From positions 4,257 through 68,256 of the forward strand of contig VXLM01000139.1 of assembly GCA_009841605.1 (NCBI GenBank): 64,000 nt of DNA. The letters are read 5' to 3'. Positions 1,774 through 61,956 of this stretch are shown one piece after another (position 1 is the first letter of the stretch; every line of letters begins with the position of its first letter). The stretch is from Dehalococcoidia bacterium. GTDB taxonomy: Bacteria > Chloroflexota > Dehalococcoidia > Lucifugimonadales > VXLM01. The notes below the pieces were generated by a model that had not been told where the DNA came from, made no database searches, and saw nothing but the letters and a program-made list of their open reading frames with translations. A program made the translations under genes and the position numbers.

Positions 1774-3015
1774 TCACAATTCCGTCTTGGGACGCTCCTT
1801 GGTCGGGTCGACGAACGGCACCCGCACCACCTCGGCATCCACAACGCCGTCCTTGGGCAGCTGGACCTTCACCCTGGTCCCCCGTCGCCAGTGAGATCGG
1901 GGCATGACTGCCAGCGCTATGTTCGACTCCAGGGTCGGCGACCAGAAGGCGCTGGTCACGTATCCCACGTCGTCGCCGGAGTCGCTGTCCTTGACCAGAT
2001 AGAAATCTTCGTTGTACCAGACAATCGACTCTCCTCCCACCTTCAGGCCGACCAGACGCTGCTGGACTCCCTCTTCCTTGATCCTGGCGAGGGCCTGCTT
2101 CCCTATGAAGTCATCCTTGCTCAGGTCCACTTGCCAGCCAAGCCTGACCTCATAAGGATTGTTTTCTATGTCCATGTCCTGGCCGTAGGACAGAATGCCG
2201 GCCTCCAGTCGGCGGATGTGGCTGGGGGCGATGACGCCCAGATTGAACTCCTCCCCCTGCTCCAGGATGTAAGGCCAGACATCGTCCGCATTGAGCATGG
2301 CGTCGTGCAGGTAGATCTCGAACCCGACTTCGGCGGAGAAGCCCGTGCGGGAAATCGTAACGTCATGGCCGTTCAGCGTGTCGTGAATTATGTGGTAGTA
2401 AGGGATGTCCCTCACGTGGGGACCAAACATCTTTTCCATCAAGGATGCCGACTTGGGTCCCTGTATCTGTACCGGGGACACGTCGATCTCGTGGATGTCC
2501 ACGTTGAACGCGCCGGATGAGTTGACTCCCTGTGCCCACAGGAGGACATCGGAGTCGGAGATGCTGAACCAGAACTCATCGTCGGCCACTCGTAGCAGGA
2601 CAGGGTCGTTGATGACGCCGCCATACTGATTGCAGAGGATGACGTACCGGGCCTGCATCGTCGGCAGCAGGGTGTGCACGTCGCGGGTGATCAGCTTGTT
2701 TACGAAGTCGGCTGCGTCGGGACCCTTGATTCTGATCTGGCGCTCGACCGCCACGTCCCACATGCTGACATGCTCGGTCAGGAACTTATACTCCGCCATC
2801 AGCCCTCCATCCTCGGGCTTGATGTACGATCGTGGGTGATACATGTGGTTGTACGTTGTATAAGCCCGGCACCCGGCTGCCTTGGACATGTGCCACCACG
2901 GTGACTTTCGGACGCGGGTGGAGATCAGCATTCGGGCGTCGCTATTGCCGCTTTGCCGGAGGTTAATGGGCAGTTTCCGCCGTTTGAGATTCTCGATTAC
3001 AAGAGTCTGAGTCAT
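1774..3015 (-). CDS. aminomethyltransferase-family (GcvT/DmdA-like) folate-binding protein
   Basis: About 413 aa with GcvT-fold blocks (MWDVAVERQIRIKGPDAADFV, GFSAEVGFEIY, RLEAGILSYGQD). GGAGG SD precedes ATG 3015; TTG 3018 is an alternative start. Confidence 0.8.
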   Translation of the reverse strand: MTQTLVIENLKRRKLPINLRQSGNSDARMLISTRVRKSPWWHMSKAAGCRAYTTYNHMYHPRSYIKPEDGGLMAEYKFLTEHVSMWDVAVERQIRIKGPDAADFVNKLITRDVHTLLPTMQARYVILCNQYGGVINDPVLLRVADDEFWFSISDSDVLLWAQGVNSSGAFNVDIHEIDVSPVQIQGPKSASLMEKMFGPHVRDIPYYHIIHDTLNGHDVTISRTGFSAEVGFEIYLHDAMLNADDVWPYILEQGEEFNLGVIAPSHIRRLEAGILSYGQDMDIENNPYEVRLGWQVDLSKDDFIGKQALARIKEEGVQQRLVGLKVGGESIVWYNEDFYLVKDSDSGDDVGYVTSAFWSPTLESNIALAVMPRSHWRRGTRVKVQLPKDGVVDAEVVRVPFVDPTKERPKTEL

Positions 3016-3500
3016 CAATGAACCTCCGTCTCCAAGTGTTGCAAGCAGTTTACGCTTATCCTCATTCGTGAGACAACGCCAATCCGGGTAGCGCCTTAGT
3101 GTGCGGAAATCGCTAACCCGGCATGCTTCTGCATACTTTGGAAGCCGTCAAAATTGGGGTAACGAGCGTGAGAAACTGTCTGAACATGGCCTGCAATCTT
3201 AGCTAGGTTCGATTCCCCTGCAATCTTGTGACGGCCTACAACTGGTCCAAATCTCGCCAGACCACACAATCCTCTGAGCTGCGAATCGCCAGAACCGTCT
3301 GGCCTCACGCCTCCTGACCCTTTTCTGGCGCAGATCGTTGTAAACATGAAGTGGTACAGACGTCGTGGGCAGGTCATCGGCGATCGGCGTCAACACCTCT
3401 GACAACGTGCTATAACGAACGCCCTGACAGGCCAACAGTTTACGGAAGAACGACTACACGAGAGCGAAAGCGACCAGACCGTCAAGGAGGTGATCGCCCC

Positions 3501-8191: not shown

Positions 8192-9192
8192 ATCTGCCTA
8201 CCCCTGCCAGTCGCGCAGTGCCCGGCGCTTCCCCTGAACCGCCCCGGGTCGACTTGGGCCGCGGAAGATTCCGGCTGATGCAGGCCAGGACGCGGCTGGC
8301 GCTGCGTTCCTTCGAGAGCGGGTGGACCGTGTTCGTCGAGAGCCGCATCGGCCTCGTGTCGCTGATAACCATAGTTGTCTTCGCCCTGATGGCGCTCTCT
8401 CACCCCATACTCATGGCTACCGTCTGGGACGCCGAAACTTACGATCCGGTCACCGGGTACGCCTTCGACGAAACGGAGCAGCCTGCCCCGCCCAGTTGGA
8501 GACACCCATTGGGTACGGACCCCTTGGGGCGGGATGTTCTCAGCCAACTCCTTTCAAGCACAGGGTCGGAGTTCATCCTTGGGATAACCGCCGCGCTGGT
8601 GACGGTGATCATCGCAACGACCGTCGGTGCCGTTGCAGCCTATTACGGCGGCCTGATCGACGCGTTCTTCATGAGGCTCGCGGACCTCATCATCGCGCTA
8701 CCGAGCATCTCCCTGCTCATCGTCTTGAGCGCGCTCTTCGAGCTCAATCTCTTCTACCTTGCCCTCTTGATCGGCGTGCTCGGAGGCTTCGGCGGCACTG
8801 CGATAGTCTTGAAGTCCCAGGCGCTGAGCATCAAGGTCAAGCCCTATATCGAGGCGGCGCGGGTGGCCGGCGGCAGCCAGTTCCGAATCATTTTCGTACA
8901 CATCGTCCCGAACCTGCTGCCTCTCTCCCTGCTCTACATGATGTTCACTGTCACGAGCGCAATCTTTGCCGAGGCGGTCCTGTCGTTCCTCGGTCTGCTC
9001 GACCTGAGAATGAGTTGGGGAATCATGATCCACACCGCGAATGCCGGGGGATACCTGCTGGGCGGGACGAAGTACTGGTGGCTGGTTATTCCGGCCGGAG
9101 CTTCCATTTCGCTCCTTTGCAGCGCCTTCTACCTCGCGGGACGAGCCCTCGACGAAGTCGTAAATCCGCGATTGAGCCGTCGAGATGACTGA
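8188..9192 (+). CDS. ABC transporter permease (DppC/OppC-like)
   Basis: ATGA start/stop overlap with the upstream permease. HPLGTDPLGRDVLS motif and EAARVAGGSQFRIIFVHIVPN loop typical of OppC/DppC. Confidence 0.9.
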   Translation: MNLPTPASRAVPGASPEPPRVDLGRGRFRLMQARTRLALRSFESGWTVFVESRIGLVSLITIVVFALMALSHPILMATVWDAETYDPVTGYAFDETEQPAPPSWRHPLGTDPLGRDVLSQLLSSTGSEFILGITAALVTVIIATTVGAVAAYYGGLIDAFFMRLADLIIALPSISLLIVLSALFELNLFYLALLIGVLGGFGGTAIVLKSQALSIKVKPYIEAARVAGGSQFRIIFVHIVPNLLPLSLLYMMFTVTSAIFAEAVLSFLGLLDLRMSWGIMIHTANAGGYLLGGTKYWWLVIPAGASISLLCSAFYLAGRALDEVVNPRLSRRDD

Positions 9193-12039: not shown

Positions 12040-12225
12040 TTCACCCTGAGCAGCGTTACGCCCCGGCACACCCACCGTAGGGGCAATCCCTTGTGGTTGC
12101 CCGTCCTCTCGTCCCTCCATTCACCCTGAGCAGCCTTATACCCCGGCTAACCCTTCGTAGGGGCAATCCCTCGTGGTTGCCCGTCCTCGTCCCTCCATTC
12201 ACCCTGAGCCTGTCGAAGGCTGACC
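12040..12225 (+). repeat. tandem repeat, about 2.3 units of 78-80 bp (family E half-site plus family F hairpin per unit)
   Basis: Units 12040-12119 and 12120-12197, plus a partial unit from 12198. Each begins TTCACCCTGAGC and contains GTAGGGGCAATCCCTTGTGGTTGCCCG. Confidence 0.88.
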
Positions 12226-15442: not shown

Positions 15443-15555
15443 GTAACTATTCAGACTTCGTGGGAGTGTGCAAAGCGCACAGCCACCGTCATACCCGCGA
15501 AAGCGGGTATCCATAGGGGTGAGGGGTGTATGTCTCATTAACTCTGAACAGTTAC
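15443..15555 (+). mobile_element. Family C MITE-like element, uninterrupted (TIR GTAACTnTTCAGA... / ...TCTGAACAGTTAC, central ATACCCGC-GAAA-GCGGGTAT hairpin)
   Basis: 113 bp. Terminal inverted repeats and an 8-bp stem with a GAAA loop at 15491-15510, read directly. Confidence 0.8.
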
Positions 15556-17029: not shown

Positions 17030-17141
17030 GTAACTGTCCCGTCTTCGTGAGCGTGCTCGACACACATAACCACCGTCATACCCGCGAAAGCGGGTATCCA
17101 CACGGGACAGAGTGTTCAGCTCATCAACTCTGAACACTTAC
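17030..17141 (+). mobile_element. Family C MITE-like element, uninterrupted
   Basis: 112 bp. gtaactgtcccgtcttcgtgagcg...ccaccgtcatacccgcgaaagcgggtatcc...aactctgaacacttac. Confidence 0.8.
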
Positions 17142-24625: not shown

Positions 24626-26887
24626 ATGACGACTACGCCTCCACTTTCAAAGTTTCTTGCCCTGCTCCTGGTGCTCGCGGCCGCAGCCGTATGGGCTTCT
24701 TGCGGGAGCGACACTACCTCCACTGAACCCACCGCGACGCCTCGCGTTGCGCCGTCATCCGGTCAGCCGGGAACAGCCTCGACCGCAAGGCAGACCACGA
24801 GCCGTCCTGCCTCCCTCGCGAAGACCAACCAGCGCAACATGAACGACCCACGCCAGGCATTCGGCGTGGTCAAGCTGGACAATGGCAAGGTACTCGTCAT
24901 CGGCGGCATCGGGCCCTACGGCTCCTTCCCCCTCGTGGAAGAATACGACCCCGCAACCGACACGTGGACGACCAAGGCGCGAATGCTGACCTCAAGGGCG
25001 TTCAGCCCGGCCATAGTGATGCAGGACGGTCGGATTCTGGTGATGGGCGGTTCGGGAGAGACGGAAAACCTCGACTCGGCCGAGTTATACGACCCCGATA
25101 CCGATACGTGGATTCAGGTCCGACGGATGATCGACAACCGTGGTCTCCACGACGCAATCCTCCTGGACGACGGCAAAGTGCTGGTGACCGGCGGGACGGG
25201 TCTAAGGGGCGGCGCCCTGAACACGGTCGAAGTCTACGACCCCGAAAAAGAGGACTGGTTCGAGCTTGCAAGCCTCCAGTTCCATCGCGGCTCCCACGGG
25301 TCCGTCCGGCTGCATGACGGGCGCATTCTCATCGCCGGAGGCGGAGACGGCGCAGGCACTCCTGTAGAGCAGGCGGAGATTTACGATCCCGCGACAGGTG
25401 AGTGGTCGTCGGGCGGCGTCATGACCACCGGGCGTGTCGCCCTCTCGCTGACCCTCCTCAACGATGGACGAGTTCTAGCATATGGAGGCGAGGAGTTCAG
25501 CAGCGCCGAGATATACGACCCCGAAACGAACACGTGGGCAGAACTGCCCGAACCCGGAGTGCCTCGCCAGGACCACACGGCCACCCTCCTGAACGACGGA
25601 CGAGTGTTGTTTGCCGGAGGAGGCCTCAAGCAAGGGACTACCGAAGACACCGCCGAGATTTTCGACCCCGAGACCGACCGGTTCGAGCCCGCCGGCAATA
25701 TGGACGCCGCGAGAGTTTCCCATCGCTCCGTCCTGCTCAACGACGGGCGAGTCATGGTCATCGGAGGCGCGCAGAGAACCGGCCCGTACGACACCGTCGA
25801 GTTCTACAATCCCGCGACGGAAACATGGGTCTCCGACCCGTTCCTCGGCTCATGGGAGAAGGCAGCCCCACTCGTGCAGCCGCGCGCCGGTCACACCACG
25901 ACGATTCTAGATGACGGCGCCCTGCTGATAGCGGGCGGAAGGGCGAGGCTCGACGAATCGGACATCCAGACACTCGTGGACTTCATCCCGGCCACCGAAA
26001 TATACAACCCGTCCACAGGCGAGTCCCGTGCCGTCGCAGATATGAACGACCCACGCGGCGGCCATATAGCGGCGGGGCTCCCGGGCGGGCGTGTGCTCGT
26101 CGCCGGCGGTAGGCAGTTGGTGATAGACGAAGAGGAAAGTAGAAAGATCACTTTCATCGGCACCGCTGAGATATACGACCCCGCCGACGATACGTGGACG
26201 CAGGTAGCCGACATGACCGTCGCCAGGTGGGCACACACCGGAATAGCGCTCGCGGATGGGACGGTCATGGTAGTCGGCGGCGAAAACGATGACGGCAAAG
26301 TCGCCACCGCCGAGGTCTATGATCCCGCCACGGACACTTGGACCGAGGTCTCTCGGATGGCCGACGGGCGCTCCGGCCACTCCATGGAACTTCTGCCGGA
26401 CGGTCGGCTCATGGTCGCTGGCGGCTCCGGTCCGACCGTCGAAGTGTACGACTTCGCCACGAGAACATGGTCGCTGCTGCCGAACTTGGACCAGCGCCTT
26501 CGTGATGCGGCCGTGGGTGTCCTGCAAGACGGCACCATCTTGGTCGCAGGCGGCTTCGGCTCACAGGGGCCGTCCAACTCGGCCCTGGTGCACGTATTGG
26601 GTACGACCCAGTGGGAGTACGTCGACCGCCTCCCGGAGGCCCGCGTAGGCTCGACTATGACACTGCTCGACAATGGTGGAATCCTCATGCTGGGCGGTAC
26701 GGGAACCACTAAGGCGTGGATATTCGACGGCACTGTCGGAGGATGGCTCTACGGCGGCAAGATGTTCGATTCTCGCAGAGACCACACCGCCACCCTGCTG
26801 CCGGACGGCAGGGTGATCACCATAGGCGGCGAGGCCAGAAACCGGGCCATCAACGACTCCGTCGAGATATACACGCCACCCCAGTAG
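24626..26887 (+). CDS. Kelch-repeat lipoprotein
   Basis: 753 aa. Signal plus lipobox (VWASCGS), Thr/Pro-rich tether, then about 14 repeats of the DGRVLV.GG...AEIYDP.T.TW type. Confidence 0.85.
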   Translation: MTTTPPLSKFLALLLVLAAAAVWASCGSDTTSTEPTATPRVAPSSGQPGTASTARQTTSRPASLAKTNQRNMNDPRQAFGVVKLDNGKVLVIGGIGPYGSFPLVEEYDPATDTWTTKARMLTSRAFSPAIVMQDGRILVMGGSGETENLDSAELYDPDTDTWIQVRRMIDNRGLHDAILLDDGKVLVTGGTGLRGGALNTVEVYDPEKEDWFELASLQFHRGSHGSVRLHDGRILIAGGGDGAGTPVEQAEIYDPATGEWSSGGVMTTGRVALSLTLLNDGRVLAYGGEEFSSAEIYDPETNTWAELPEPGVPRQDHTATLLNDGRVLFAGGGLKQGTTEDTAEIFDPETDRFEPAGNMDAARVSHRSVLLNDGRVMVIGGAQRTGPYDTVEFYNPATETWVSDPFLGSWEKAAPLVQPRAGHTTTILDDGALLIAGGRARLDESDIQTLVDFIPATEIYNPSTGESRAVADMNDPRGGHIAAGLPGGRVLVAGGRQLVIDEEESRKITFIGTAEIYDPADDTWTQVADMTVARWAHTGIALADGTVMVVGGENDDGKVATAEVYDPATDTWTEVSRMADGRSGHSMELLPDGRLMVAGGSGPTVEVYDFATRTWSLLPNLDQRLRDAAVGVLQDGTILVAGGFGSQGPSNSALVHVLGTTQWEYVDRLPEARVGSTMTLLDNGGILMLGGTGTTKAWIFDGTVGGWLYGGKMFDSRRDHTATLLPDGRVITIGGEARNRAINDSVEIYTPPQ

Positions 26888-40080: not shown

Positions 40081-40191
40081 CACCCTCACCCCTCCGGCAA
40101 GTAGGGGCGATTCGCGAATCGCCCCTTATCCCCTCTCCCGTCGTGGGAGAGGGCTAGAGCCTGCCCCGTACTTGATACGGGGGTGAGGGTG
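40081..40191 (+). repeat. composite: family G 24-nt perfect palindrome, plus family A hairpin interrupted by a family I hairpin, bounded by CACCCTCACCCC / GGGGTGAGGGTG
   Basis: AGGGGCGATTCGCGAATCGCCCCT at 40103-40126. The A hairpin starts at 40126 and its tail is split by CCCCGTA-cttga-TACGGGG (40164-40182). The outer 12-nt inverted arms are at 40081-40092 and 40180-40191. Confidence 0.85.
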
Positions 40192-43655: not shown

Positions 43656-44645
43656 CTATTTTGATTCCGGCAGTCGGATGGCGTACAGGGATCCGTCCGT
43701 CGACCCCACGTACACGACTCCGTCGGCCACCGTGGGTGACGAAGAAACGGGGCCCTCCGTCGCGTATTGCCAGAGCAGTTCCCCCGTCTCTGCGGATGCC
43801 GCGTAGAGATTGTGGTCGAACGATCCGAAGTACACCACGCCCTCGGCTATGGCCGGAGACGACTCGACCCGGCCGCCGGTAGGGAGTCGCCATCGAAGCG
43901 ACCCAACTTCCGCGTCCAACGCATAGAGATGACCGTCCCTCGATCCCACGTACACGACTCCTTCCGCTACCGCCGGTGATGAGACCACCCAGTCATTGGT
44001 GCGATATCGCCATCTCTCCACGCCGGTGTTTGCGTCAACGGCGTAAACATGACCGTCCCAAGAGCCGAAGTACACGTACCCGTTCCCGACAGCGGGTGAG
44101 GAAAACACAACGTTGTCCGCCTTCGCGCGCCACATGATGGTCCCCGTCCCGGCGTCCAGTGCGTACAGGTGCCCATCATTCGATCCGACGTACACCACGC
44201 CGTCGACAACGCGAGGTGATGACATAATCCAGTCTTCCGTGCCCGAGCGCCAGACGATTTCGCCCGTCGCGGCCTCCAGCGCGTAGACGTGATGATCGGT
44301 GGAGCCGACGTACACTATCCCATTGACGACCGCCGGGGACGAAAATACGCCCTCCCCAAGCCGGCTGCGCCAGACCACTTCGCCCGACGATGCGGCAAGT
44401 GCATACACATACCCGTTCCACGAGCCGACGTACACAACTCCCTCGGTCACACGCGGCGATGAATAGACCTTGTCGCCTGAGTCGAACGACCAGCGCTGCT
44501 CTCCGAGCTCGGCGTCCAGCGCCAGCAGACTGCCGTCCTCCGAGCCGACGAATACCACCCCATCAGCTACGGTAGGGCTGGACGATACGGCGTCTCCGGT
44601 CTTGTGCCGCCGGATGAGATGTGCTTCTTTCAACGTCTGTTGCAT
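43656..44645 (-). CDS. eight-bladed PQQ-like beta-propeller repeat protein without signal peptide
   Basis: 329 aa made of 8 units of about 40 aa, SSP.V.DGVVYVGS.DG.LYALDA.TGE..W. Starts 5 nt after the upstream FtsX gene stop. N-terminus MQQTLKEAHLIRRHKTGD is not hydrophobic. Confidence 0.85.
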   Translation of the reverse strand: MQQTLKEAHLIRRHKTGDAVSSSPTVADGVVFVGSEDGSLLALDAELGEQRWSFDSGDKVYSSPRVTEGVVYVGSWNGYVYALAASSGEVVWRSRLGEGVFSSPAVVNGIVYVGSTDHHVYALEAATGEIVWRSGTEDWIMSSPRVVDGVVYVGSNDGHLYALDAGTGTIMWRAKADNVVFSSPAVGNGYVYFGSWDGHVYAVDANTGVERWRYRTNDWVVSSPAVAEGVVYVGSRDGHLYALDAEVGSLRWRLPTGGRVESSPAIAEGVVYFGSFDHNLYAASAETGELLWQYATEGPVSSSPTVADGVVYVGSTDGSLYAIRLPESK

Positions 44646-44650
44646 ACGAA

Positions 44651-47600
44651 CTACTCGCCGAAACGTGATATTGCCCGCAGGTCAAGCTGGCCCACTCCCC
44701 TGTTGAGCAGAACGAGTGCGGCGACGAACAGGAGACCCAGCGCGACGTAGGTGGTCCCCATGATGAGCCAGTCGGTCGAAAGGATGAAGGGCGGCGTGAC
44801 CGGAAGTCCGGTCTCGGTAATCGCTAATGGCGAGACCGTGAGACGGCTCATCTGGAATCCGGCCCAAGTACCGAGACCGAGACCGATCGCGGCCACCGCC
44901 AGATGCTCGAAGCCCAGGAGCCTGAGCAGTTGGCCTCTGGTGAGACCCAGGGTCCGCAACGAACCGATCTCGACTGCGCTCTTCTTGGCGAAGAGCAGGA
45001 GATACGTGACATACCCGACAGCGGCGGCAAAGACCGCTATTGCCGGAGAGAGTATCGTCATCGGCTGCCAACCTGCCGCGACGAAGGGATTGATCTGCAG
45101 ACTTTCGAGACGGCCCTGCCCGTCGCGGACGGACCCACCCTGCGGGCCGAGTATCTCAACCACGGCCTCCCCGACTCGCTCGTGCGAGCCCGGCTTGAGA
45201 TCGTAGTACAGGTCCAGTGCTCGTATTCGATGGTGATTGAGAAGCACGTTGGCGCGGTCCAGCAGGCTGTTCAAATCGGTCAGAATCAGCCCGCCCTGGC
45301 TCGGATCGTGTGTCGGGAAGAAGTCGACCACTTCCACCACCCTCATGCGGAGCCAGCGCAGGCCCACCAAGGCGATGAAGGTGCTCCCCTCCTGCCGGTC
45401 GGGACGAACGAGAGACGAGTCTATCACCACGGGCAGAGGACCCGGAACGGATGTCGGGTAGAAACCTCGCAGCCCCTGCGTGGTCTGCCCGCTGAAAGTG
45501 TAGGCTATTGCCTTCGAGCCGTTTCGCACCTCGTTCGCGGAGAACTCGACCACCTCTGTAGATGCCGCCGACGTCAGGATCGCCTCCCACTTGAGATCGG
45601 CTCCCTCGAAGTCGTCGAGCACCAGCTCTTCGTTCTCAAAGCCCACCGTGGCGATGATGTCGTCGATGTAGAGCGTGCCCGGCGTCACGGGGGAGGCATC
45701 AAGACCTGCGTTAGGATCGCCCCCCGGCTCGAACATGTGGATCGAGACAAGCGAGAACGGAGGTTTGACGTGGTCGGGAATATTGCCGATCACGAACTGC
45801 CAGTCTTCCGTGCGAAGCGTGTTGAAGATGACGGTCTGTAGCTCACCCCGCTCGTTTTCGATTTGCGCGTACAGGTCGAGTCCTGGAATGAACGGATCGG
45901 GCTTTACCCACAGGCCGATGCCGTTCGTGTCGTCGGGCAGAGGTATCCTTCCCGTCGGCGCATTGGGATTGAGCCGGTCCATCAGTTGTGGCAGCGTGCT
46001 GTCCGAAAAGTCGTCGCGATACCACGCGACATCGGCGAAGCCCGACGTGTCCACGGCGAGTACCTCCGCGGTGGAACCGCCGGCCGTACCGCGCTCTCGG
46101 AGCCCTCGTACCACGTTCTCGACATCCTCAAGCTCCTGGGACTTGCGATGAACTTCCTGCACGCCTCCTTGGGCGAGCAGAGAGGCGGTGACCCGCAGAT
46201 CGGCCCCTTCCTCGAAGAGGACGCGCTCGATCTGGCTGCGTTCCAGCGTGCCGCCGACCGTTGTCGCCAGGATGCCGAGACCGGTCGCGAGGACGAGCAG
46301 CAGGATGAGCCACGTGTATTGGAGCGGGTTGCGCGACATGTGGAGCAGACCGATCTCCAGCCACACCGGCGTCACGCGGCTGAGACCGGTGAATAAGACG
46401 AACAGCAGCTGCGCCGGTACCACGGCAATGAGCCCCCATGTCGGGACGGTCAGCAGATCGCCGGACACCGGAGGCCGCAGGACGACGAATCCAGCGACGA
46501 GCAGCGCCTGTACGACGAGCCCGGCGTATCTGCGCTTTCGGTCGTGCCAGTAGCGTTTCGTCGCCCAGAAGGCGATGAGGACCGCCAACGCCAACGCTCC
46601 CGGCAGCAGCCAGTCAAGCGTCTCATTCCCACGTTCGCGCCAGTAGACCCCAACGACGGATGCGACGACCGACGCCGCCACCAGCAGGTCCACGATGCGG
46701 CTCGACTCGCCGCTGATGTACCGGACGATCATCGGGAAGAACCGCATGAACACCAGCGTCACGACGATCAGGAAGAGAACGGGCGCGACGAGGAGCACCT
46801 CGTTGACCTCGGTCTCCTCGAAGTAGCCGCTGTAAACGAACTGTCCGCGCTTCTGGAGCTCCCAGTAGATCAGGCCCCCGAAGACGAGGATGCCGATGTC
46901 TAGATTGAATCTCTGGAGGAAGGGGAGTCCAAGCGGACGTGATGTCTGAAGCCGGCGTAGGAGCACGCCTCCCTGCGCGCTGAGCACGTTGGGCACAACG
47001 AAAATCGCAAGGCAGAGCAAGCCGACCCCCAGTGAGATGATGAAGGGAGTGGCGGCTAGGCGTATCGGCATGAGATTGCCCTGGTTCATCTCCTCGAAGA
47101 AGGGCAGCACTCCCGAAACGGCGACCATTCCGTAGGCCAGGAACGGGGTCACGATCACGGCTGTCGCGACCATCACGAGACCTTCGGTCATGTATATCCG
47201 GGTCAGCTGCGAGAGAGTCGCCCCGAGGGTCTTGAGGAGCGACGCGTCGCCTTCCCTGCTCTGCGTCAGGTACGAAACGAGAATGCCGAGGAAGAACAGC
47301 ACGGTCAGCAAAATCACCGTGAGCAACAGCAGCATCGGTATCTTGGCGTAGAAGTTGCGTAGCTGTCCCGACTCCGTCAGGTTCTCCACGAACTCCGTGG
47401 TAGCGTCGGCGTCGGGAAGCTCGGAGGTAATGGCGTCGGAGAAGGCGCTGAATCGCTCCCTGGCCTCTGCCGCCGACCACTCTTTGAGTCGCTCCGGGTC
47501 GATCTTGACCACCCATTGAGGGCTTACCACTGCGCCGGGGTAGGTCTCCGAGAGAAGCTGCGCCATAACCTCCGGCGCGACGATGATCGGAATGTTTGAG

Positions 47601-48910
47601 AGGGAATTGTCCGACAGGACGAGGAACGGCGTGTCCTGCCGTTGAGGATCGAGGCTCAGCAGCGCGCCGGTGGAGCGCCAGTACGGCGAGTTCTTGTCGT
47701 CCTCTTCGTAATAGCCCACTACCCGCACCGTGATGATTTCACGCTCACCAAGTTCCGGTGAGAAGTAAAATTCGTCCCCGATCTCGGTCTGCGTCCGCAG
47801 GGATACGCCGCGATGCACGATAGCTTCGATCATGGGGCCGCGCGGGCCTTGTGTGATTTCCGTGCTCGCCGTTCCGCCCTGCTCGAACACGATGTTGTCC
47901 TCGAAATTCGAGAGCGACACGAGGAATCCCAGGCGCGCGATGATGCCCTGACCTGTACTTACCGGAAGATTATTGTTCGGCGTGCTGACCAGCATAGGCA
48001 CGCCCTTGACGTACGTCTCCTGTCCGAGGAAGGTCGTCTCCGCGACGAGGTCCTGCAGGGCGACACGCATGGCCGTCTCGTCGGCGAAGAGGGTTAGAGG
48101 AGTTTCCCCGGGTCTCTGAACCGTCAAGTACGGCGCGGGAGTTTCGATGACGGGCGGACTGAGCGCCTCGCCGTTCGAACCCCACACACGGGCTTCCGGG
48201 TCCAGCGGCTCGAAGATGCCGGTGATGACGATGCCGATGCCCGGTGGCCCGACCGGTATCGGAGCCGGCGTCGAATCGAGAAGCTCCGCGAGTTCGTCAT
48301 CGTCCTCACCCTCGTCCGTAGCCGTCGATACCGCTCTCTGAGCCAGGAGATCGGCGGCGAGAATGACCTCGTCGTCGACTTCGAGCTCGAAGCGCTCAGC
48401 CATTTCCGACGAAACCACGGCCTCGATAACCGCTCCGAACGTGCCGCTGTCGATCGTGCCGGAAGCCATCTCCCCCTTGACGAACCTCACGTGCGACGGC
48501 AGGTTCGAGAGGTGCTGGAGATAGCCCCGCGAGACGTAGATGCCCTCTCCTGTCCCCTCAGGCAAGGGTAAGTCCGGCGTTCCTATGATGGCGACACGGC
48601 TCTTGATGAATTGTTCATGCCCGTCGTACACGTCCGCAATGTGCTCTTCGATGGCGTCCGTGACGACCTGATCGGCGTGCCTGAGCGATTTCTCGGTCGC
48701 CACCACTTCCGCGCCGAAGACATCGATCTTCGGCTCGTCGATCCGGTCAAGCGCGGCGTTGAACGAAAGCTGGTCGAGGGATTCGAGGTATATCGGCGTG
48801 CCCGCGCCGATGGTCGTGGCAATCAGTATGCCGATGAACACCGTCAGCAGAAGCTTCCAGTCGTCGGCGATGCGCCGAACGATTACCCTTGTTAGCGAGA
48901 GATTCTTCAT
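44651..48910 (-). CDS. giant double-FtsX-domain membrane protein (paralog of 40211-43630)
   Basis: 1419 aa. TM1 at about residues 19-42, ECD1 about 43-523, FtsX module about 524-645, about 6-7 central TMs, ECD2 about 890-1283, FtsX module about 1284-1405. Shares VAW(Y/F)RDDF(S/T)D and other collinear motifs with the paralog. Confidence 0.8.
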   Translation of the reverse strand: MKNLSLTRVIVRRIADDWKLLLTVFIGILIATTIGAGTPIYLESLDQLSFNAALDRIDEPKIDVFGAEVVATEKSLRHADQVVTDAIEEHIADVYDGHEQFIKSRVAIIGTPDLPLPEGTGEGIYVSRGYLQHLSNLPSHVRFVKGEMASGTIDSGTFGAVIEAVVSSEMAERFELEVDDEVILAADLLAQRAVSTATDEGEDDDELAELLDSTPAPIPVGPPGIGIVITGIFEPLDPEARVWGSNGEALSPPVIETPAPYLTVQRPGETPLTLFADETAMRVALQDLVAETTFLGQETYVKGVPMLVSTPNNNLPVSTGQGIIARLGFLVSLSNFEDNIVFEQGGTASTEITQGPRGPMIEAIVHRGVSLRTQTEIGDEFYFSPELGEREIITVRVVGYYEEDDKNSPYWRSTGALLSLDPQRQDTPFLVLSDNSLSNIPIIVAPEVMAQLLSETYPGAVVSPQWVVKIDPERLKEWSAAEARERFSAFSDAITSELPDADATTEFVENLTESGQLRNFYAKIPMLLLLTVILLTVLFFLGILVSYLTQSREGDASLLKTLGATLSQLTRIYMTEGLVMVATAVIVTPFLAYGMVAVSGVLPFFEEMNQGNLMPIRLAATPFIISLGVGLLCLAIFVVPNVLSAQGGVLLRRLQTSRPLGLPFLQRFNLDIGILVFGGLIYWELQKRGQFVYSGYFEETEVNEVLLVAPVLFLIVVTLVFMRFFPMIVRYISGESSRIVDLLVAASVVASVVGVYWRERGNETLDWLLPGALALAVLIAFWATKRYWHDRKRRYAGLVVQALLVAGFVVLRPPVSGDLLTVPTWGLIAVVPAQLLFVLFTGLSRVTPVWLEIGLLHMSRNPLQYTWLILLLVLATGLGILATTVGGTLERSQIERVLFEEGADLRVTASLLAQGGVQEVHRKSQELEDVENVVRGLRERGTAGGSTAEVLAVDTSGFADVAWYRDDFSDSTLPQLMDRLNPNAPTGRIPLPDDTNGIGLWVKPDPFIPGLDLYAQIENERGELQTVIFNTLRTEDWQFVIGNIPDHVKPPFSLVSIHMFEPGGDPNAGLDASPVTPGTLYIDDIIATVGFENEELVLDDFEGADLKWEAILTSAASTEVVEFSANEVRNGSKAIAYTFSGQTTQGLRGFYPTSVPGPLPVVIDSSLVRPDRQEGSTFIALVGLRWLRMRVVEVVDFFPTHDPSQGGLILTDLNSLLDRANVLLNHHRIRALDLYYDLKPGSHERVGEAVVEILGPQGGSVRDGQGRLESLQINPFVAAGWQPMTILSPAIAVFAAAVGYVTYLLLFAKKSAVEIGSLRTLGLTRGQLLRLLGFEHLAVAAIGLGLGTWAGFQMSRLTVSPLAITETGLPVTPPFILSTDWLIMGTTYVALGLLFVAALVLLNRGVGQLDLRAISRFGE

Positions 48911-49046
48911 GTCACGAAAACATGCAGGAGATCGTCGGCTGCTTGATGAGACCCACTTTCGTTAGCCCTAATCCCAAATGAAGGACAACGCCCCCGATAG
49001 TCTTAAACGTCGTTCACGCATGGGTGTTAGCCGTCCCACGTGAACA

Positions 49047-49177
49047 CTAAGGAACTATCTCAAAATACGCTTCGACACGTTTTCTCCACACGCGGGCTCA
49101 GAGAACAATACGTTCGCCCTGAGCTTGTCGAAGGGCAATTCTTGGCCAACAAACATAGTTTTAAGATAGTTTCCAAG
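49047..49177 (+). mobile_element. Family Y element (degenerate TIR CTAAGGAACTATCTC / GATAGTTTCC) with a family E core
   Basis: About 131 bp, collinear with 53830-53956. Confidence 0.7.
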
Positions 49178-49259
49178 CCTAGCTGCACCTCTTGGAAATC
49201 TAATGATAGTCCCGTCCAGTTCGCGTATCAACCGCTTGGGCTCGTCGAAGTTCCGCCGT

Positions 49260-49523
49260 GTAGCTGCTCAGAGACCGTGAGCGCGCTCGACACACACAGC
49301 CACCGTCATACCCGCGAAGAGCTTCCCCCGTACCCCGATACGGGAGAGACCTTTGCATAACCCCTGATGGGAGCCTGGAAATCCCTTCCCCCTTGATGGG
49401 GGAAGGTTAGGATGAGGGTGAAATTCGCGCCACTAAGGCAATACCTGGAGGTTATGCAAATGTCACCGAAAGCCCGGAATCCGCAGGGGCGAGGCATTCC
49501 CCTCGCCAACTCTGAACACTTAC
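49260..49523 (+). mobile_element. Family C element with nested insertions (family I hairpin plus 112-bp family Z unit carrying an A-variant hairpin)
   Basis: Outer ends gtagctgctcagagaccgtgagcg / aactctgaacacttac. The C hairpin is split after catacccgcgaag. Z unit at 49350-49461. Confidence 0.8.
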
Positions 49524-49539
49524 CGAGCCGTCAGCCCGG

Positions 49540-49568
49540 TTGACGCCTCGCCCCCTGACGACTATCCT
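49540..49568 (+). promoter_or_regulatory. candidate promoter TTGACG-N17-TATCCT positioned for a leaderless ygfZ mRNA
   Basis: The -10 element ends 6 nt before ATG 49575 and no SD is present. Confidence 0.3.
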
Positions 49569-49574
49569 CGAAAT

Positions 49575-50582
49575 ATGGGACCTGTAGCAAATCTCCATGC
49601 CGAAGTTCTCCTCGATGGATCCTTGACCGCAGAGGAGCAATACCGCGCCCTGACTTCGGGCGTCGCGGTGCTGGACCGTTCCGACGCTGGGCGACTAGCC
49701 CTCACGGGCGATGACGCGCTCGACCTCCTGAACCGCCTTTCCACCAACGAGCTCGCGACCCTCGAAGTCGGCGCAGGTGCTGCCACCGTCCTGACGACGA
49801 ACAAGGGACGTATCGTTGACTTGCTTCACGTCCACCGGAGCGAAGACCGGTTGGTGGTATTCACCTCCCCGGAGAATCAGCAGCGCGTGGCCGAGTGGAT
49901 TGACTTCTATACCTTTGTTGAGGATGTGGAGATCGAAGACGTAACTAGCGAGACGGCTATGCTCTCGCTCACCGGCCTCGATTCGACGAAATTCTTGGAC
50001 GAGCTCACGGACGGCCAGGCATCGTTGTTAGCGACCTATGAACGATTGAGCACACAGATTTCCGATGTCACTGCCGAGGTGTACCGCAGCGACTTCCTGG
50101 GGCCGCCTTCATTCGACATCGTCTTCGACGCCGAACACAGGGATAACCTCTTCGGAGTACTCACAGACAATGGCGCGACACCCGCTGGCCCGGACGTGAT
50201 CGAGGCCCTTCGAGTCCAGCGCGGCATCCCCGCGTTCGGCAAGGAGTTGACCGAGGACTACAACCCGCATGAGGCCAACCTCGTCCACCACGTGAGCTTC
50301 TCGAAGGGATGCTACATCGGGCAAGAGGTAATCGCCCGGCTCCAGACCTACAAGAAAGTCAGTAAGTACCTCGTCGGCCTTCGGTGGGACGGCGACGGCC
50401 CTGCACCGGGCTCCTTCCTGACGCACGACGGCAAGCGGATGGGCATAGTCACGTCCGTGGCCCGCCTGCCCCATACCGGAGCAAACGTCGGTCTTGCCTA
50501 CGTCCGCAAGCAGTTCGTCGACGACGGCACGACGGTTGTCGACGAGACCGGAATCGAGATCACGATCAAGGTCCTCATCTAG
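49575..50582 (+). CDS. ygfZ: YgfZ/GcvT-like folate-binding protein
   Basis: 335 aa. GcvT-fold N-terminal half and the family signature KGCYIGQE. Confidence 0.8.
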   Translation: MGPVANLHAEVLLDGSLTAEEQYRALTSGVAVLDRSDAGRLALTGDDALDLLNRLSTNELATLEVGAGAATVLTTNKGRIVDLLHVHRSEDRLVVFTSPENQQRVAEWIDFYTFVEDVEIEDVTSETAMLSLTGLDSTKFLDELTDGQASLLATYERLSTQISDVTAEVYRSDFLGPPSFDIVFDAEHRDNLFGVLTDNGATPAGPDVIEALRVQRGIPAFGKELTEDYNPHEANLVHHVSFSKGCYIGQEVIARLQTYKKVSKYLVGLRWDGDGPAPGSFLTHDGKRMGIVTSVARLPHTGANVGLAYVRKQFVDDGTTVVDETGIEITIKVLI

Positions 50583-51454
50583 CCCGCCATCTCGTCGAAC
50601 ACAATGCGCGATATCCGCGCCAGCTTCGGATCGAGGTCGGTGCTGTCTGTTATCCGCTTCGCCATGATCGCCACGGCGTACGGCCCGCTCGGTCCCCACA
50701 CGATTCCCACGTCGCAGCGGACGCTGTAGACGCCTCCCGTCTTGTGGGCCGCGATGACGTCCGGGGGCAGGTAGTACGGGATGATGCTCCTGAGCTTCTG
50801 GCGCTTGAGAATATGGAGCATTCCGTCCCGTGACCCCTCCGACAGGAAATCGCCGTTGTGGACGATCTCCAGCAGGCGCACCATGTCGGCAGGCGACGAG
50901 ACGTCGGACTTCTCCTCGTTCAGCGCGTCGCAGTCGGGCGACAGCCCACGGTATCCCTGCTCCACCCGGTCGGATACCTCCCAGAAATCGTCCAGCGACT
51001 CGCTGACCGTGAGTCCCGCCAGGCTGAAGAGAAGATCGCGGCACGACATCGGCAGCTTGGTCTTGTTGAGGCCGAGATCCCCCATCGTGCGATTCAGGTC
51101 GTCCTTCCCCACGGTGTGATACAGGATGTCGGTGGCGAGGTTGTCGCTCACGATGATCATCAGCATCGCGAGATCGTGCAGATTCGGAGCCAGGCCATTC
51201 CCAAGCTCTCTCAAGACCCCTGAGCCCGGCACTCGGAGGATGTCGGTCAGCTCGACACGCTGCGAGAGATCGAGCGTGCCCGCATCGACCTGGCGATAGA
51301 GCTCCGCCAGTATGGGCACCTTGAAGGTGCTCGCGGTGAAGAACACCTCATCGGCGTTGTGCTCGATCGTCTTCCCCGTCTCGAGGTGTCGCGCGGCCAC
51401 GCCCACCACGCCGGGAACTTCGGAGACGGCCTCTGAAATTGTCGTCATGTTCAA
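50579..51454 (-). CDS. class-A beta-lactamase-like serine hydrolase, no signal peptide
   Basis: 291 aa. S-x-x-K (STFK), S-D-N (VSDNLATD) and K-T-G (HKTGG) motifs in class-A order. The N-terminus lacks a hydrophobic leader. Confidence 0.8.
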   Translation of the reverse strand: MNMTTISEAVSEVPGVVGVAARHLETGKTIEHNADEVFFTASTFKVPILAELYRQVDAGTLDLSQRVELTDILRVPGSGVLRELGNGLAPNLHDLAMLMIIVSDNLATDILYHTVGKDDLNRTMGDLGLNKTKLPMSCRDLLFSLAGLTVSESLDDFWEVSDRVEQGYRGLSPDCDALNEEKSDVSSPADMVRLLEIVHNGDFLSEGSRDGMLHILKRQKLRSIIPYYLPPDVIAAHKTGGVYSVRCDVGIVWGPSGPYAVAIMAKRITDSTDLDPKLARISRIVFDEMAG

Positions 51455-52824: not shown

Positions 52825-52852
52825 CGTAGGGGCGATTCGCGAATCGCCCCTA
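52825..52852. repeat. Family G 28-nt perfect palindrome GTAGGGGCGATTCGCGAATCGCCCCTAC
   Basis: Read directly. The same palindrome occurs at 40101-40126 and, degenerate, at 60759-60786. Confidence 0.9.
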
Positions 52853-52860
52853 CTTCCATA

Positions 52861-53086
52861 GTATCTGTTCAGACTTCGTGAGAGCCCTCAGCATACACAG
52901 CCACCGTCATACCACCTTTGCACAATCCCTGATGGGAGCCTGGAAATCCCTTCCCCCTTGATGGGGGAAGGTTAGGATGGGGGTGAAATTCGCGACGCTA
53001 AGGCATAACTGGAGGTTACGCAAAGGTCTCCGAAAGCGGGTATCCACAGGGGGAGGGTGTTCCTCTCATCAACTCTGAACAGTTAC
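52861..53086 (+). mobile_element. Family C element with a nested 112-bp family Z unit (four structural layers)
   Basis: Outer TIRs. The C hairpin is split into 52901-52913 and 53032-53045. Z unit at 52915-53026 with ends cctttgcacaa / ttacgcaaagg. Inner hairpin ccttccccc-ttgat-gggggaagg. Confidence 0.85.
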
Positions 53087-60686: not shown

Positions 60687-60735
60687 CGTCATTCCGGCGA
60701 AGGAACGTCACCCCGCACCACGATACGGGGCGGAA
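60687..60735 (+). repeat. C-like hairpin (gtcattccggcgaagg...cggaaatcc) interrupted by a family I hairpin
   Basis: The intact version is gtcattcccgcgaaggcgggaatcc at 61904-61928. Here ccccgcaccacgatacgggg is inserted right after the loop. Confidence 0.7.
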
Positions 60736-60758
60736 ATCCATGCCCCGGCCAACCTCCC

Positions 60759-61892: not shown

Positions 61893-61956
61893 TTTACATA
61901 ACCGTCATTCCCGCGAAGGCGGGAATCCAATCGCCTCGTCTCCTGAGTTATGTAAA
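61893..61956 (+). mobile_element. Z-like shell (TTTACATAAC / GTTATGTAAA) carrying a C-like hairpin ATTCCCGC-gaag-GCGGGAAT
   Basis: The 10-bp TIRs differ by one base from the Z ends (tttgcataac / gttatgcaaa), but the cargo is a different hairpin family. Confidence 0.7.

Follow-up and report, generated by a model that had tools for sequence, protein, structure and literature searches.

Positions 49260-49523 of the window, by which we mean the whole 64,000-nt stretch of DNA that was analysed, are best read, with a probability of about 0.6, as a three-layer nest of short repeats. According to this reading, an inner element (I) is a MITE that targets hairpin loops and has entered the central hairpin (R) of an outer element (H), with a very small hairpin (S) lying beside it. 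The census of I, its single orientation, the loop letters repeated at its borders and its copies outside H all led us to conclude that I behaves as such a MITE.

The window has a GC content of ~61%, its nearest public relatives are Dehalococcoidia MAGs, and the sequencing runs holding its sequence are sponge metagenomes, no run being clearly of RNA. A repeat search of the window revealed intergenic DNA crowded with short hairpin repeats. The nest under study, built on the interrupted H copy A, lies inside a 664-nt spacer between divergently oriented genes for an FtsX-like permease and a GcvT-like protein, and a second interrupted copy, B, is located between an ADP-ribosylglycohydrolase gene and an FMN-reductase gene; a Pfam scan of the seven genes flanking the loci detected no transposase among them. 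Loci used for comparison are L001 and L005 from the complete chromosome OZ220720.1, L002 (with copies a, b and c) and L004 from isolate S25_171, L006, L007 and L008 from three ENA metagenome contigs, and L031-L150 from JGI contigs, L140 being MKWU01010637.1. Locus L004 (DAOUIN010000314.1) is 95.3% identical to window positions 44323-50960 over 6.6 kb, and L002 and L001 are syntenic at 87-91% identity. An assembly artefact was rejected as the source of the nest, the same three layers being found at the orthologous locus of an independent MAG (L004), and junctions of the nest are also crossed by contigs from other sponge metagenome runs, among them run X3. Repeats break short-read assemblies exactly at nest sites. 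A Holophagaceae locus (L003) was discarded as a chance match in coding sequence.

Other repeats of the window were recorded alongside. Two diverged direct-repeat arrays, one of eight copies with a 120-nt period (43693-44582) and one of seven copies with periods near 144-147 nt (25071-26349), look like coding sequence and not like mobile DNA. A dispersed family, CGTTCGCCCTGAGCCTGTCGAAGGGC, whose reverse complement translates as PFDRLRANG, recurs at 12196, 12423, 22704, 39294, 49111, 53890 and 61468, one of its copies (49102-49171) sharing the spacer of copy A. In addition, a palindrome, GTAGGGGCGATTCGCGAATCGCCCC(TAC), stands at 52826-52853, 7 nt upstream of the left end of copy B, and again at about 40101-40125, where it abuts a repeat of the D5 type starting at 40126.

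Table 1. Positions of the nested elements, their reference copies and the bordering genes (window coordinates, unless another locus is named; a slash marks a junction).
Feature	Position	Strand	Remarks
FtsX-like permease gene	44651-48910	minus	borders the spacer of copy A
H, copy A, interrupted	49260-49523		inverted repeats at 49260-49273 (left, GTAGCTGCTCAGAG) and 49510-49523 (right, CTCTGAACACTTAC)
Left R arm CGTCATACCCGC and left tetraloop copy GAAG, copy A	49304-49319	+	compared with intact R
S in copy A, 25 nt, AGCTTCCCCCGTACCCCGATACGGG	49320-49344	+	between left loop copy and I
I in copy A, 123 nt	49345-49467	+	left end 49345-49362; right end 49450-49467
Parts of I in copy A	core hairpin 49382-49406; G-rich tail 49407-49421	+	core invariant
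Right tetraloop copy GAAA and right R arm GCCCGGAATCC, copy A	49468-49482	+	compared with intact R
GcvT-like gene	49575-50582	plus	borders the spacer of copy A
H, copy B, interrupted	52861-53086		I at 52914-53031
H, uninterrupted, 113 nt	15443-15555		empty-site reference
H, uninterrupted, 112 nt	17030-17141		empty copy
Second S of the window, 24 nt	40158-40181	+	precise insertion in a D5-type repeat, GGGCTAG/S/GGTGAGGGTG
X, two copies	L001 3878-4147; L005 771-1040	opposite orientations	loop of the I core hairpin

The outer element H is 112-113 nt long and bounded by terminal inverted repeats of 13-14 bp (GTAACTGTTCAGA/TCTGAACAGTTAC), with these ends present in nine copies. Its copies are 68-92% identical pairwise, and the intact ones fold beyond shuffled controls (z -4.0 and -5.5). 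Across six loci, the octamers on either side of H agree at 32 of 48 positions (p=1.7e-7), which makes H a classical MITE whose target duplication measures 8 bp; the match is 5/8 in copy A (TCCGCCGT and CGAGCCGT), 6/8 in copy B (CTTCCATA and CTTTCATG) and 8/8 in L001. We take its GTAA start and 8-bp duplication to recall the IS66 family. At L001 3638-4252, two H copies are arranged in tandem with CCAC between them, one carrying I and a further element, X, and the other empty, and a perfect 8-bp repeat (GTGGAAAC) brackets both; in S25_171, the ortholog (L002 3376-3626) is a single H with I and S.

The REP-like hairpin R at the centre of H follows the pattern CCGTCATACCCGC-GAAA-GCGGGTATCC and reads CATACCCGC-GAAA-GCGGGTAT in the intact copies, at 15490 and 17077. 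Like a REP, it is a short GC-rich hairpin whose structure is kept through compensatory changes, its stems being CCCGC/GCGGG or CCGGC/GCCGG, closed at the base by T/A or A/T, and its tetraloops GAAA, GAAG, GCAG, GTAC or GAAT, the first four of them in empty hairpins. R-type hairpins also exist outside H. For instance, a 64-nt element at 61893-61956, with inverted ends TTTACATAAC/GTTATGTAAA and the R hairpin CATTCCCGC-GAAG-GCGGGAAT at its centre, represents a second, shorter family built around R, and an R-type hairpin at 60687-60739 (CGTCATTCCGGCGAAGG...GGAAATCC) has its loop filled by a variant hairpin resembling S (CCCCGCACCACGATACGGGG) without the AGCCTG tail.

The consensus of the inner element I is 123 nt long, is bounded by 18-bp inverted ends (GGAGACCTTTGCATAACC...GGTTACGCAAAGGTCTCC) that match at 17/18 positions, and contains a core hairpin, TCCCTTCCCCC-TTGA-TGGGGGAAGG, followed by TTAGGATGGGGGTGA. 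In copy B, the first 4-5 nt of I are missing. Individual copies are 91-96% identical to their own consensus (86% for one truncated copy), making I, as a family, more homogeneous than H, and the inner units fold beyond shuffled controls (z -4.2 and -2.65); the repeat search of the window paired the two interrupted copies over 92 nt at 95%. The only open frame running through I is spurious, on the minus strand, with 67 aa at 49306-49509 and 46 aa at 52907-53047, and translations of the repeat are already deposited in public collections as predicted proteins (P0001-P0003). A protein search with the 67-aa frame returned only three matches, which gave loci L006-L008. A reading of the R arms as an extension of the inverted ends of I, forming a 31-nt repeat, was rejected, the loop letters being direct and not inverted repeats and R alone being far more widespread than I.

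The segment formed by the core hairpin and the G-rich tail (49382-49421) is almost invariant in 10 copies of I, as would also be expected if I, or this segment of it, were a selected structured RNA or DNA motif, neither younger than its host nor mobile and better conserved through constraint. Related units combining a hairpin with GGGTGAGGG are very abundant and widespread, and pairs of loci in which both layers are of the same age also lean towards a better conserved I. We nevertheless regard this explanation as highly improbable. No Rfam family matched the whole window at the gathering threshold, and a search of the locus at E<=1 yielded only CRISPR-DR57, at 17 bits where its gathering score is 39; none of the 32 base pairs predicted for I by RNAalifold carried a compensatory change in 10 copies. 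Moreover, copies of I tolerate 9-10, 24 or 270 nt of inserted sequence within or beside the core, as well as truncated ends (B, L002a), and inverted ends with flanking duplications are features of transposons.

The core of I is also a variant of the D5 unit, ATCCCCTCTCCC-GTCG-TGGGAGAGGG-CTAGGGTGAGGGTGA, of which repeats of about 45 nt each occur at 1693, 12229, 40126, 51551, 56697 and 61575. The 3' half of this unit (GGGAGAGGGCTAGGGTGAGGG) is a G-quadruplex-type motif of four G3 runs separated by 3-nt spacers, the two leading runs pairing with the C-rich arm upstream, and the word depth of D5 in sponge metagenomes reaches 80-1000x single copy.

Combining one species-representative genome scan, the spurious-ORF protein search and contig look-ups, the census recovered eleven copies of I, from the window (two), S25_171, OZ220720.1 and the three ENA metagenome contigs. 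All eleven abut the left arm of a hairpin, in one orientation throughout, and five of them lie outside H: four in plain R (L002a, L006, L007 and L008), and L002c, which is preceded by a different hairpin-like sequence and ends at the contig end. Loci L002a and L007 read CATTCCCGC-GTAG/I/(T/A)TAG-GCGGGAAT, and L006 and L008 read CATTCCCGC-G(A/T)AG/S/I/GAAA-GC(G/A)GGAAT, which is the architecture of copy A. The inner unit of the original prediction is thus supported as a separable element by the 18-bp inverted ends and by the copies in plain R, and paralogous empty hosts are seen in H at 15443 and 17030 and in an R2 host at L002 position 4992. Among the loci compared, no orthologous locus differing by I alone was seen; the only filled-versus-empty case is the whole R-plus-I unit of L002a, missing from the corresponding site of OZ220720.1.

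The borders of these copies provide the target information. In copy A, loop letters occur on both sides of the insert, as had been noted from the sequence, with CGCGAAG ending at 49319 and GAAAGCCCGG starting at 49468. The same is seen in L004, L002a, L006, L007 and L008, mostly as imperfect 4-mers: GTAG...TTAG in L002a, GTAG...ATAG in L007 and GAAG...GAAA in A and L006. The two flanking copies co-vary, TA with TA and AA with AA, as expected from target duplication in hairpins with different loops, and a normal R hairpin, CCCGC-GNAR-GCGGG, is regained in A, L002a, L006, L007 and L008 once I and a single loop copy are excised. The length of the duplication, 2-4 bp, is ambiguous because G residues are common to the loop and the ends of I. 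The suggested target duplication may apply to most copies; in B, L001 and L002b, the loop copy at the left of I is absent.

At the community scale, I in the R loop without S was found in sponge metagenomes, in 3-6 contigs per run reading CCGTCATTCCCGCGAAAG/GAGACC (left side GAAAG/GAGACC). The arms of I show a word depth of roughly 5-50x single copy and the core hairpin alone 300-1000x, I being therefore a small family around a very abundant core motif. By word depth the family amounts to about 10 genome-equivalents, and each genome showed 2-4 copies, so that the sample is thin. Three copies fall within 5.3 kb in L002 1-5334 (546-665, 3430-3570, and 5288 to the contig end) and two within 3.6 kb in the window, a spacing that suggests local clustering. 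A 24-mer spanning the core and flank of I had 0 matches in the JGI metagenomes, and the family therefore appears absent from that collection; in viral_contigs, the core hairpin retrieved only unrelated D5-like units in other bacteria, and a single match to the inverted end of I, in an AT-rich phage, was rejected as a chance match. A search of ~0.95 Mb covering 151 loci, collections that are very incomplete for this purpose, revealed no autonomous partner with ends of the I type, and the only longer element with such ends among these loci is the gene-less mosaic of L140 described below.

Comparison of the two nests of the window provides a second line of evidence, on the relative history of the layers. 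Copies A and B align end to end save for a 36-nt block present in A alone. About nine differences had been counted by eye between the inner units 49350-49461 and 52915-53026, and alignment returned 8 substitutions and 1 indel. Likewise, the host had been described as the more diverged layer, and per-layer pairwise identities agree, host and insert being not equally diverged: 109/118 positions (92.4%) are identical in I (49345-49467 vs 52914-53031) against 75/95 (78.9%) in H, split central hairpin excluded (Fisher p=0.008), and 105/115 against 91/115 with slightly different boundaries (p=0.015). The further step, from better conserved to younger, is weaker. The greater homogeneity of I is confirmed, but same-age controls lean in the same direction (H/I identities of 93.7/97.6 for A-L004, 91.5/90.8 for L001a-L002b and 84.2/90.7 for B-L001a; pooled, 89.8% for H vs 93.1% for I, p=0.15). 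The gap between layers in A vs B is 13.5 points, four times that of these controls.

Whether A and B represent separate insertions depends on their junctions, of which the right one is identical, with the same orientation of I, and the left ones differ. In B, the left junction reads CATACC/ACCTTTG, without left R arm, left loop copy or S, and the right loop copy and right arm occupy 53032-53045. This junction is derivable from that of A by a 36-nt deletion between two ACC triplets. A single nesting, or very few, followed by copying of the composite by H, with B descending from an A-type nest through this ACC...ACC deletion, would account for the shared right junction and orientation, and the lean of the same-age pairs towards a better conserved I is in line with it. 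In addition, the B-type junction recurs at another locus in L001 (OZ220720.1) and L002b (S25_171), whose H+I composites each have their own 8-bp H target duplication, from which we conclude that H+I composites have been copied as units. Judging from this recurrence, the outer layer H was still active after I had nested, and the picture of an old host with a young mobile insert is too strong as a whole, H having moved with I in place.

Composite copying is however rather unlikely as the general explanation of the nests. It sits poorly with the A vs B gap between layers, fourfold that of same-age pairs, and with the host of B, which has its nearest match in the empty H of L007 (88%, vs 79% to the host of A). 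The same three junction forms are also found in plain R without H (L002a, L006, L007 and L008), and the right R arm of copy A is itself of the plain-R type. The independent nesting put forward by the original prediction finds partial support. It is favoured by the gap between layers, the host of B, the differing left junctions and the plain-R right arm of A, and disfavoured by the shared right junction, the shared orientation, the derivability of the junction of B by deletion and the copying of whole composites, and the balance tips slightly towards A and B having acquired I separately.

The constant orientation of I calls for the same caution. A cut-and-paste transposase working on inverted repeats would not usually produce it, and it would arise just as readily if R+I composites were propagated whole; taken with the short duplication, it fits hairpin targeting, composite spread or conversion between R hairpins. 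If the cassette loop-S-I-loop were copied between R hairpins by recombination or gene conversion, I itself not transposing, the fixed orientation would be automatic. Copy A has a left R arm of the H type (CATACC) and a right arm of the plain-R type (AAT; GGAATCC) instead of the H type (TAT; GGTATCC), as a tract from an R(S+I) donor like L006 or L008 would leave, and A, L006 and L008 share one arrangement of S and I. The homology arms would however measure only about 10-14 nt, and the arm evidence amounts to a single nucleotide that could be a point mutation. Moreover, conversion leaves unexplained the co-varying loop copies, the 18-bp inverted ends of I and the presence of an I-type element in a quite different hairpin (L140), and we consider it improbable. 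Insertion of I into hairpin loops thus remains our preferred reading.

The third layer of the nest, S, is a hairpin of 24-25 nt with the form AGCYTNCCCCGTAC-N(2-4)-GATACGGG or, for the 24-nt hairpin, AGCCTGCCCCGTAC-NNN-GATACGGG. An extra hairpin had been reported between the split arm and the inner unit, and it is indeed in place in copy A, where the hairpin part of S reads CCCCGTACCCCGATACGGG at 49326-49344. It had been attributed to the decoration of the host, an interpretation that we abandon, S behaving as a third mobile layer that is found in other repeats. It forms precise insertions without duplication at AG^G in four hosts, namely the D5 unit, the I core, the R loop and a GACAGGCTCAG^GGCGAACG repeat. 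In L002b, S sits inside I itself (GGTTAG/S/GATGGGGG) and the orthologous I copy of L001 is without it, and one metagenome contig has S alone in the R loop of H (R-left arm, GAAG, S, GCGGGTATCC). The elements I, S and H thus occur both separately and mixed, with regular targets.

An exact-pattern scan retrieved S from at least 120 unrelated JGI metagenome contigs. Among the matches listed, these contigs span 36-67% GC and the recurrent hosts are R-type hairpins, D5-type units and the GACAGGCTCAG^GGCGAACG repeat; over 125 distinct contexts among these matches, the letters before the CCTG of S are AG at 85% and 96% and the letter after S is G at 98%. The R-type host reads GTCATTCCGGGCTTGAC-TA-S-GGAATCC, and both orientations of S occur in R-type hairpins (~57 forward and ~7 reverse among the matches listed). 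Based on this recurrent AG^G context and on these hosts, S acts like a very small element that obeys a target rule of its own. In JGI contigs L079, L080 and L106, the CGTTCGCCCTGAGCCTGTCGAAGGGC-family repeat is interrupted by S. More tentatively, S may be a mobile element shared by many bacterial lineages, inserted by a putative enzyme at AG^G without duplication, mostly in hairpin repeats and in either orientation. If so, the nests of the window would be a local outcome of a general system whose landing pads are hairpin loops.

Cyanobacterial SDR, as studied by Elhai and colleagues in 2008, are reportedly hairpins of 21-27 nt that insert precisely, without duplication, inside other repeats, and that are said to be present or absent between orthologous sites. 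By its size, its precise insertion without duplication, its location inside repeats and its polymorphism between orthologous sites, S shares the traits of these small dispersed repeats. In contrast to them, its sequence is different, its AG^G target is clear and its hosts recur (R-type hairpins and D5-type units), and the wide GC range of its contigs, among the matches listed, points beyond one phylum. A literature search found no paper containing the sequence of S.

Hairpin loops of this lineage host further insertions. X is a 270-nt inverted-repeat element, with ends CTGACAGGGGYAGGCA and boundary sequence CTGACAGGGGTAGGCA, that occupies both I copies of OZ220720.1. These X copies reach 90% identity only when one of them is reverse-complemented, and thus result from two independent insertions at one site, the copy of L005 keeping a 10-bp duplication (CCCTTGATGG); loop-targeted insertion is therefore active in this lineage. 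At the H+I locus shared by L002 and L001, S is found in S25_171 only, and X and the second, tandem H in OZ220720.1 only, so that S and X both differ as filled versus empty between orthologous loci. Solo X-type ends were observed in L006, in L007 and at window position 8195. In L140, a 418-nt mosaic (2787-3206) with I-type inverted ends of 23 bp occupies the loop of a D5-like hairpin, CTCTTCCC-AGG/.../TGG-GGGAGAGGG, and includes two reversed S copies together with further partial I-type ends.

From these observations, a simple mechanism can be proposed. Having no gene, I would probably be mobilised in trans by a putative transposase recognising the R hairpin or its cruciform, and it best fits, in our analysis, a gene-less derivative of a hairpin-recognising insertion sequence. 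S would be a separate, very small element following its own target rule. The order of events in copy A may most simply have been I first, then S at an AG^G made at the junction between the loop and I, after which the outer layer could have copied the nested composite with its own machinery.

Each ingredient of these nests, be it MITEs, nested repeats or hairpin-targeted insertion, is already known, and no new mechanism is involved. Like the bacterial MITEs reviewed so far (Nezha, Chunjie, Correia/NEMIS, RUP and MITEAba12; PMC3184786), H and I are non-coding, intergenic elements of 110-125 nt with inverted ends and flanking direct repeats, present in multiple diverged copies and folding as long hairpins. 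Unlike these, I is confined to the loops of hairpin repeats, in one orientation, with a duplication of only 2-4 bp made of the loop itself, and a parent insertion sequence of H or I is putative. A literature search found no paper on MITEs or such elements in Dehalococcoidia.

A closer parallel is offered by the insertion sequences of five families that target REP hairpins and whose removal reconstitutes the REP, including IS1397 and ISKpn1 (IS3), IS621, ISPpu9/10 and ISPa11 (IS110), and others of the IS4, IS5 and IS256 families (PMC1525189). As in these systems, I stands inside a repeated extragenic hairpin that is restored on its removal, and its target is set by the hairpin repeat and not by the genomic neighbourhood. 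In contrast, the inserts described here are gene-less miniatures, their targets are part of other mobile repeats, the nests reach three to four layers, and the host belongs to the Dehalococcoidia and is not a proteobacterium.

Small hairpin systems provide additional points of comparison. R resembles REP and REPIN (PMC3116915, PMC3333891) in that it is an extragenic hairpin, short and rich in GC, whose stem changes are compensatory and whose flanking letters are conserved, and both S and R are single hairpins of REP size, S, unlike REPIN, giving no sign of inverted doublets. For the TnpA-REP of E. coli, a conserved 5' GTAG and a C/T cleavage rule have been described (PMC3116915, PMC3333891). 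The insertion of S without duplication beside a fixed dinucleotide recalls the hairpin-guided HUH enzymes (PMC3333891), and a single-stranded-DNA, hairpin-guided mechanism like that of RAYT (Y1/HUH) systems, which would explain insertion without duplication, is a possibility for S. Very small hairpin repeats likewise invade intergenic DNA in the mitochondria of sponges and fungi, as do the GC clusters in the mitochondrial DNA of yeast, and repeated insertion gives rise to tandem or compound hairpins among them (PMC2800124); these elements are organellar and differ in sequence and composition, and the likeness is one of analogy only.

The novelty of the nests lies in their unusually clean multi-layer arrangement, and the least expected result is the wide distribution and strict target of S. 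Three elements, I, X and the I-like mosaic, were found in the loops of three hairpins, and a fourth, S, follows a strict AG^G rule. Such layered and regular repeats constitute a compact natural record of target choice and provide testable substrates for how gene-less elements recognise DNA hairpins. They also extend the targeting of REP hairpins, so far mainly proteobacterial, to Chloroflexota symbionts of sponges. Finally, with spurious proteins derived from such repeats already present in databases, the annotation of symbiont MAGs would gain from repeat masking.
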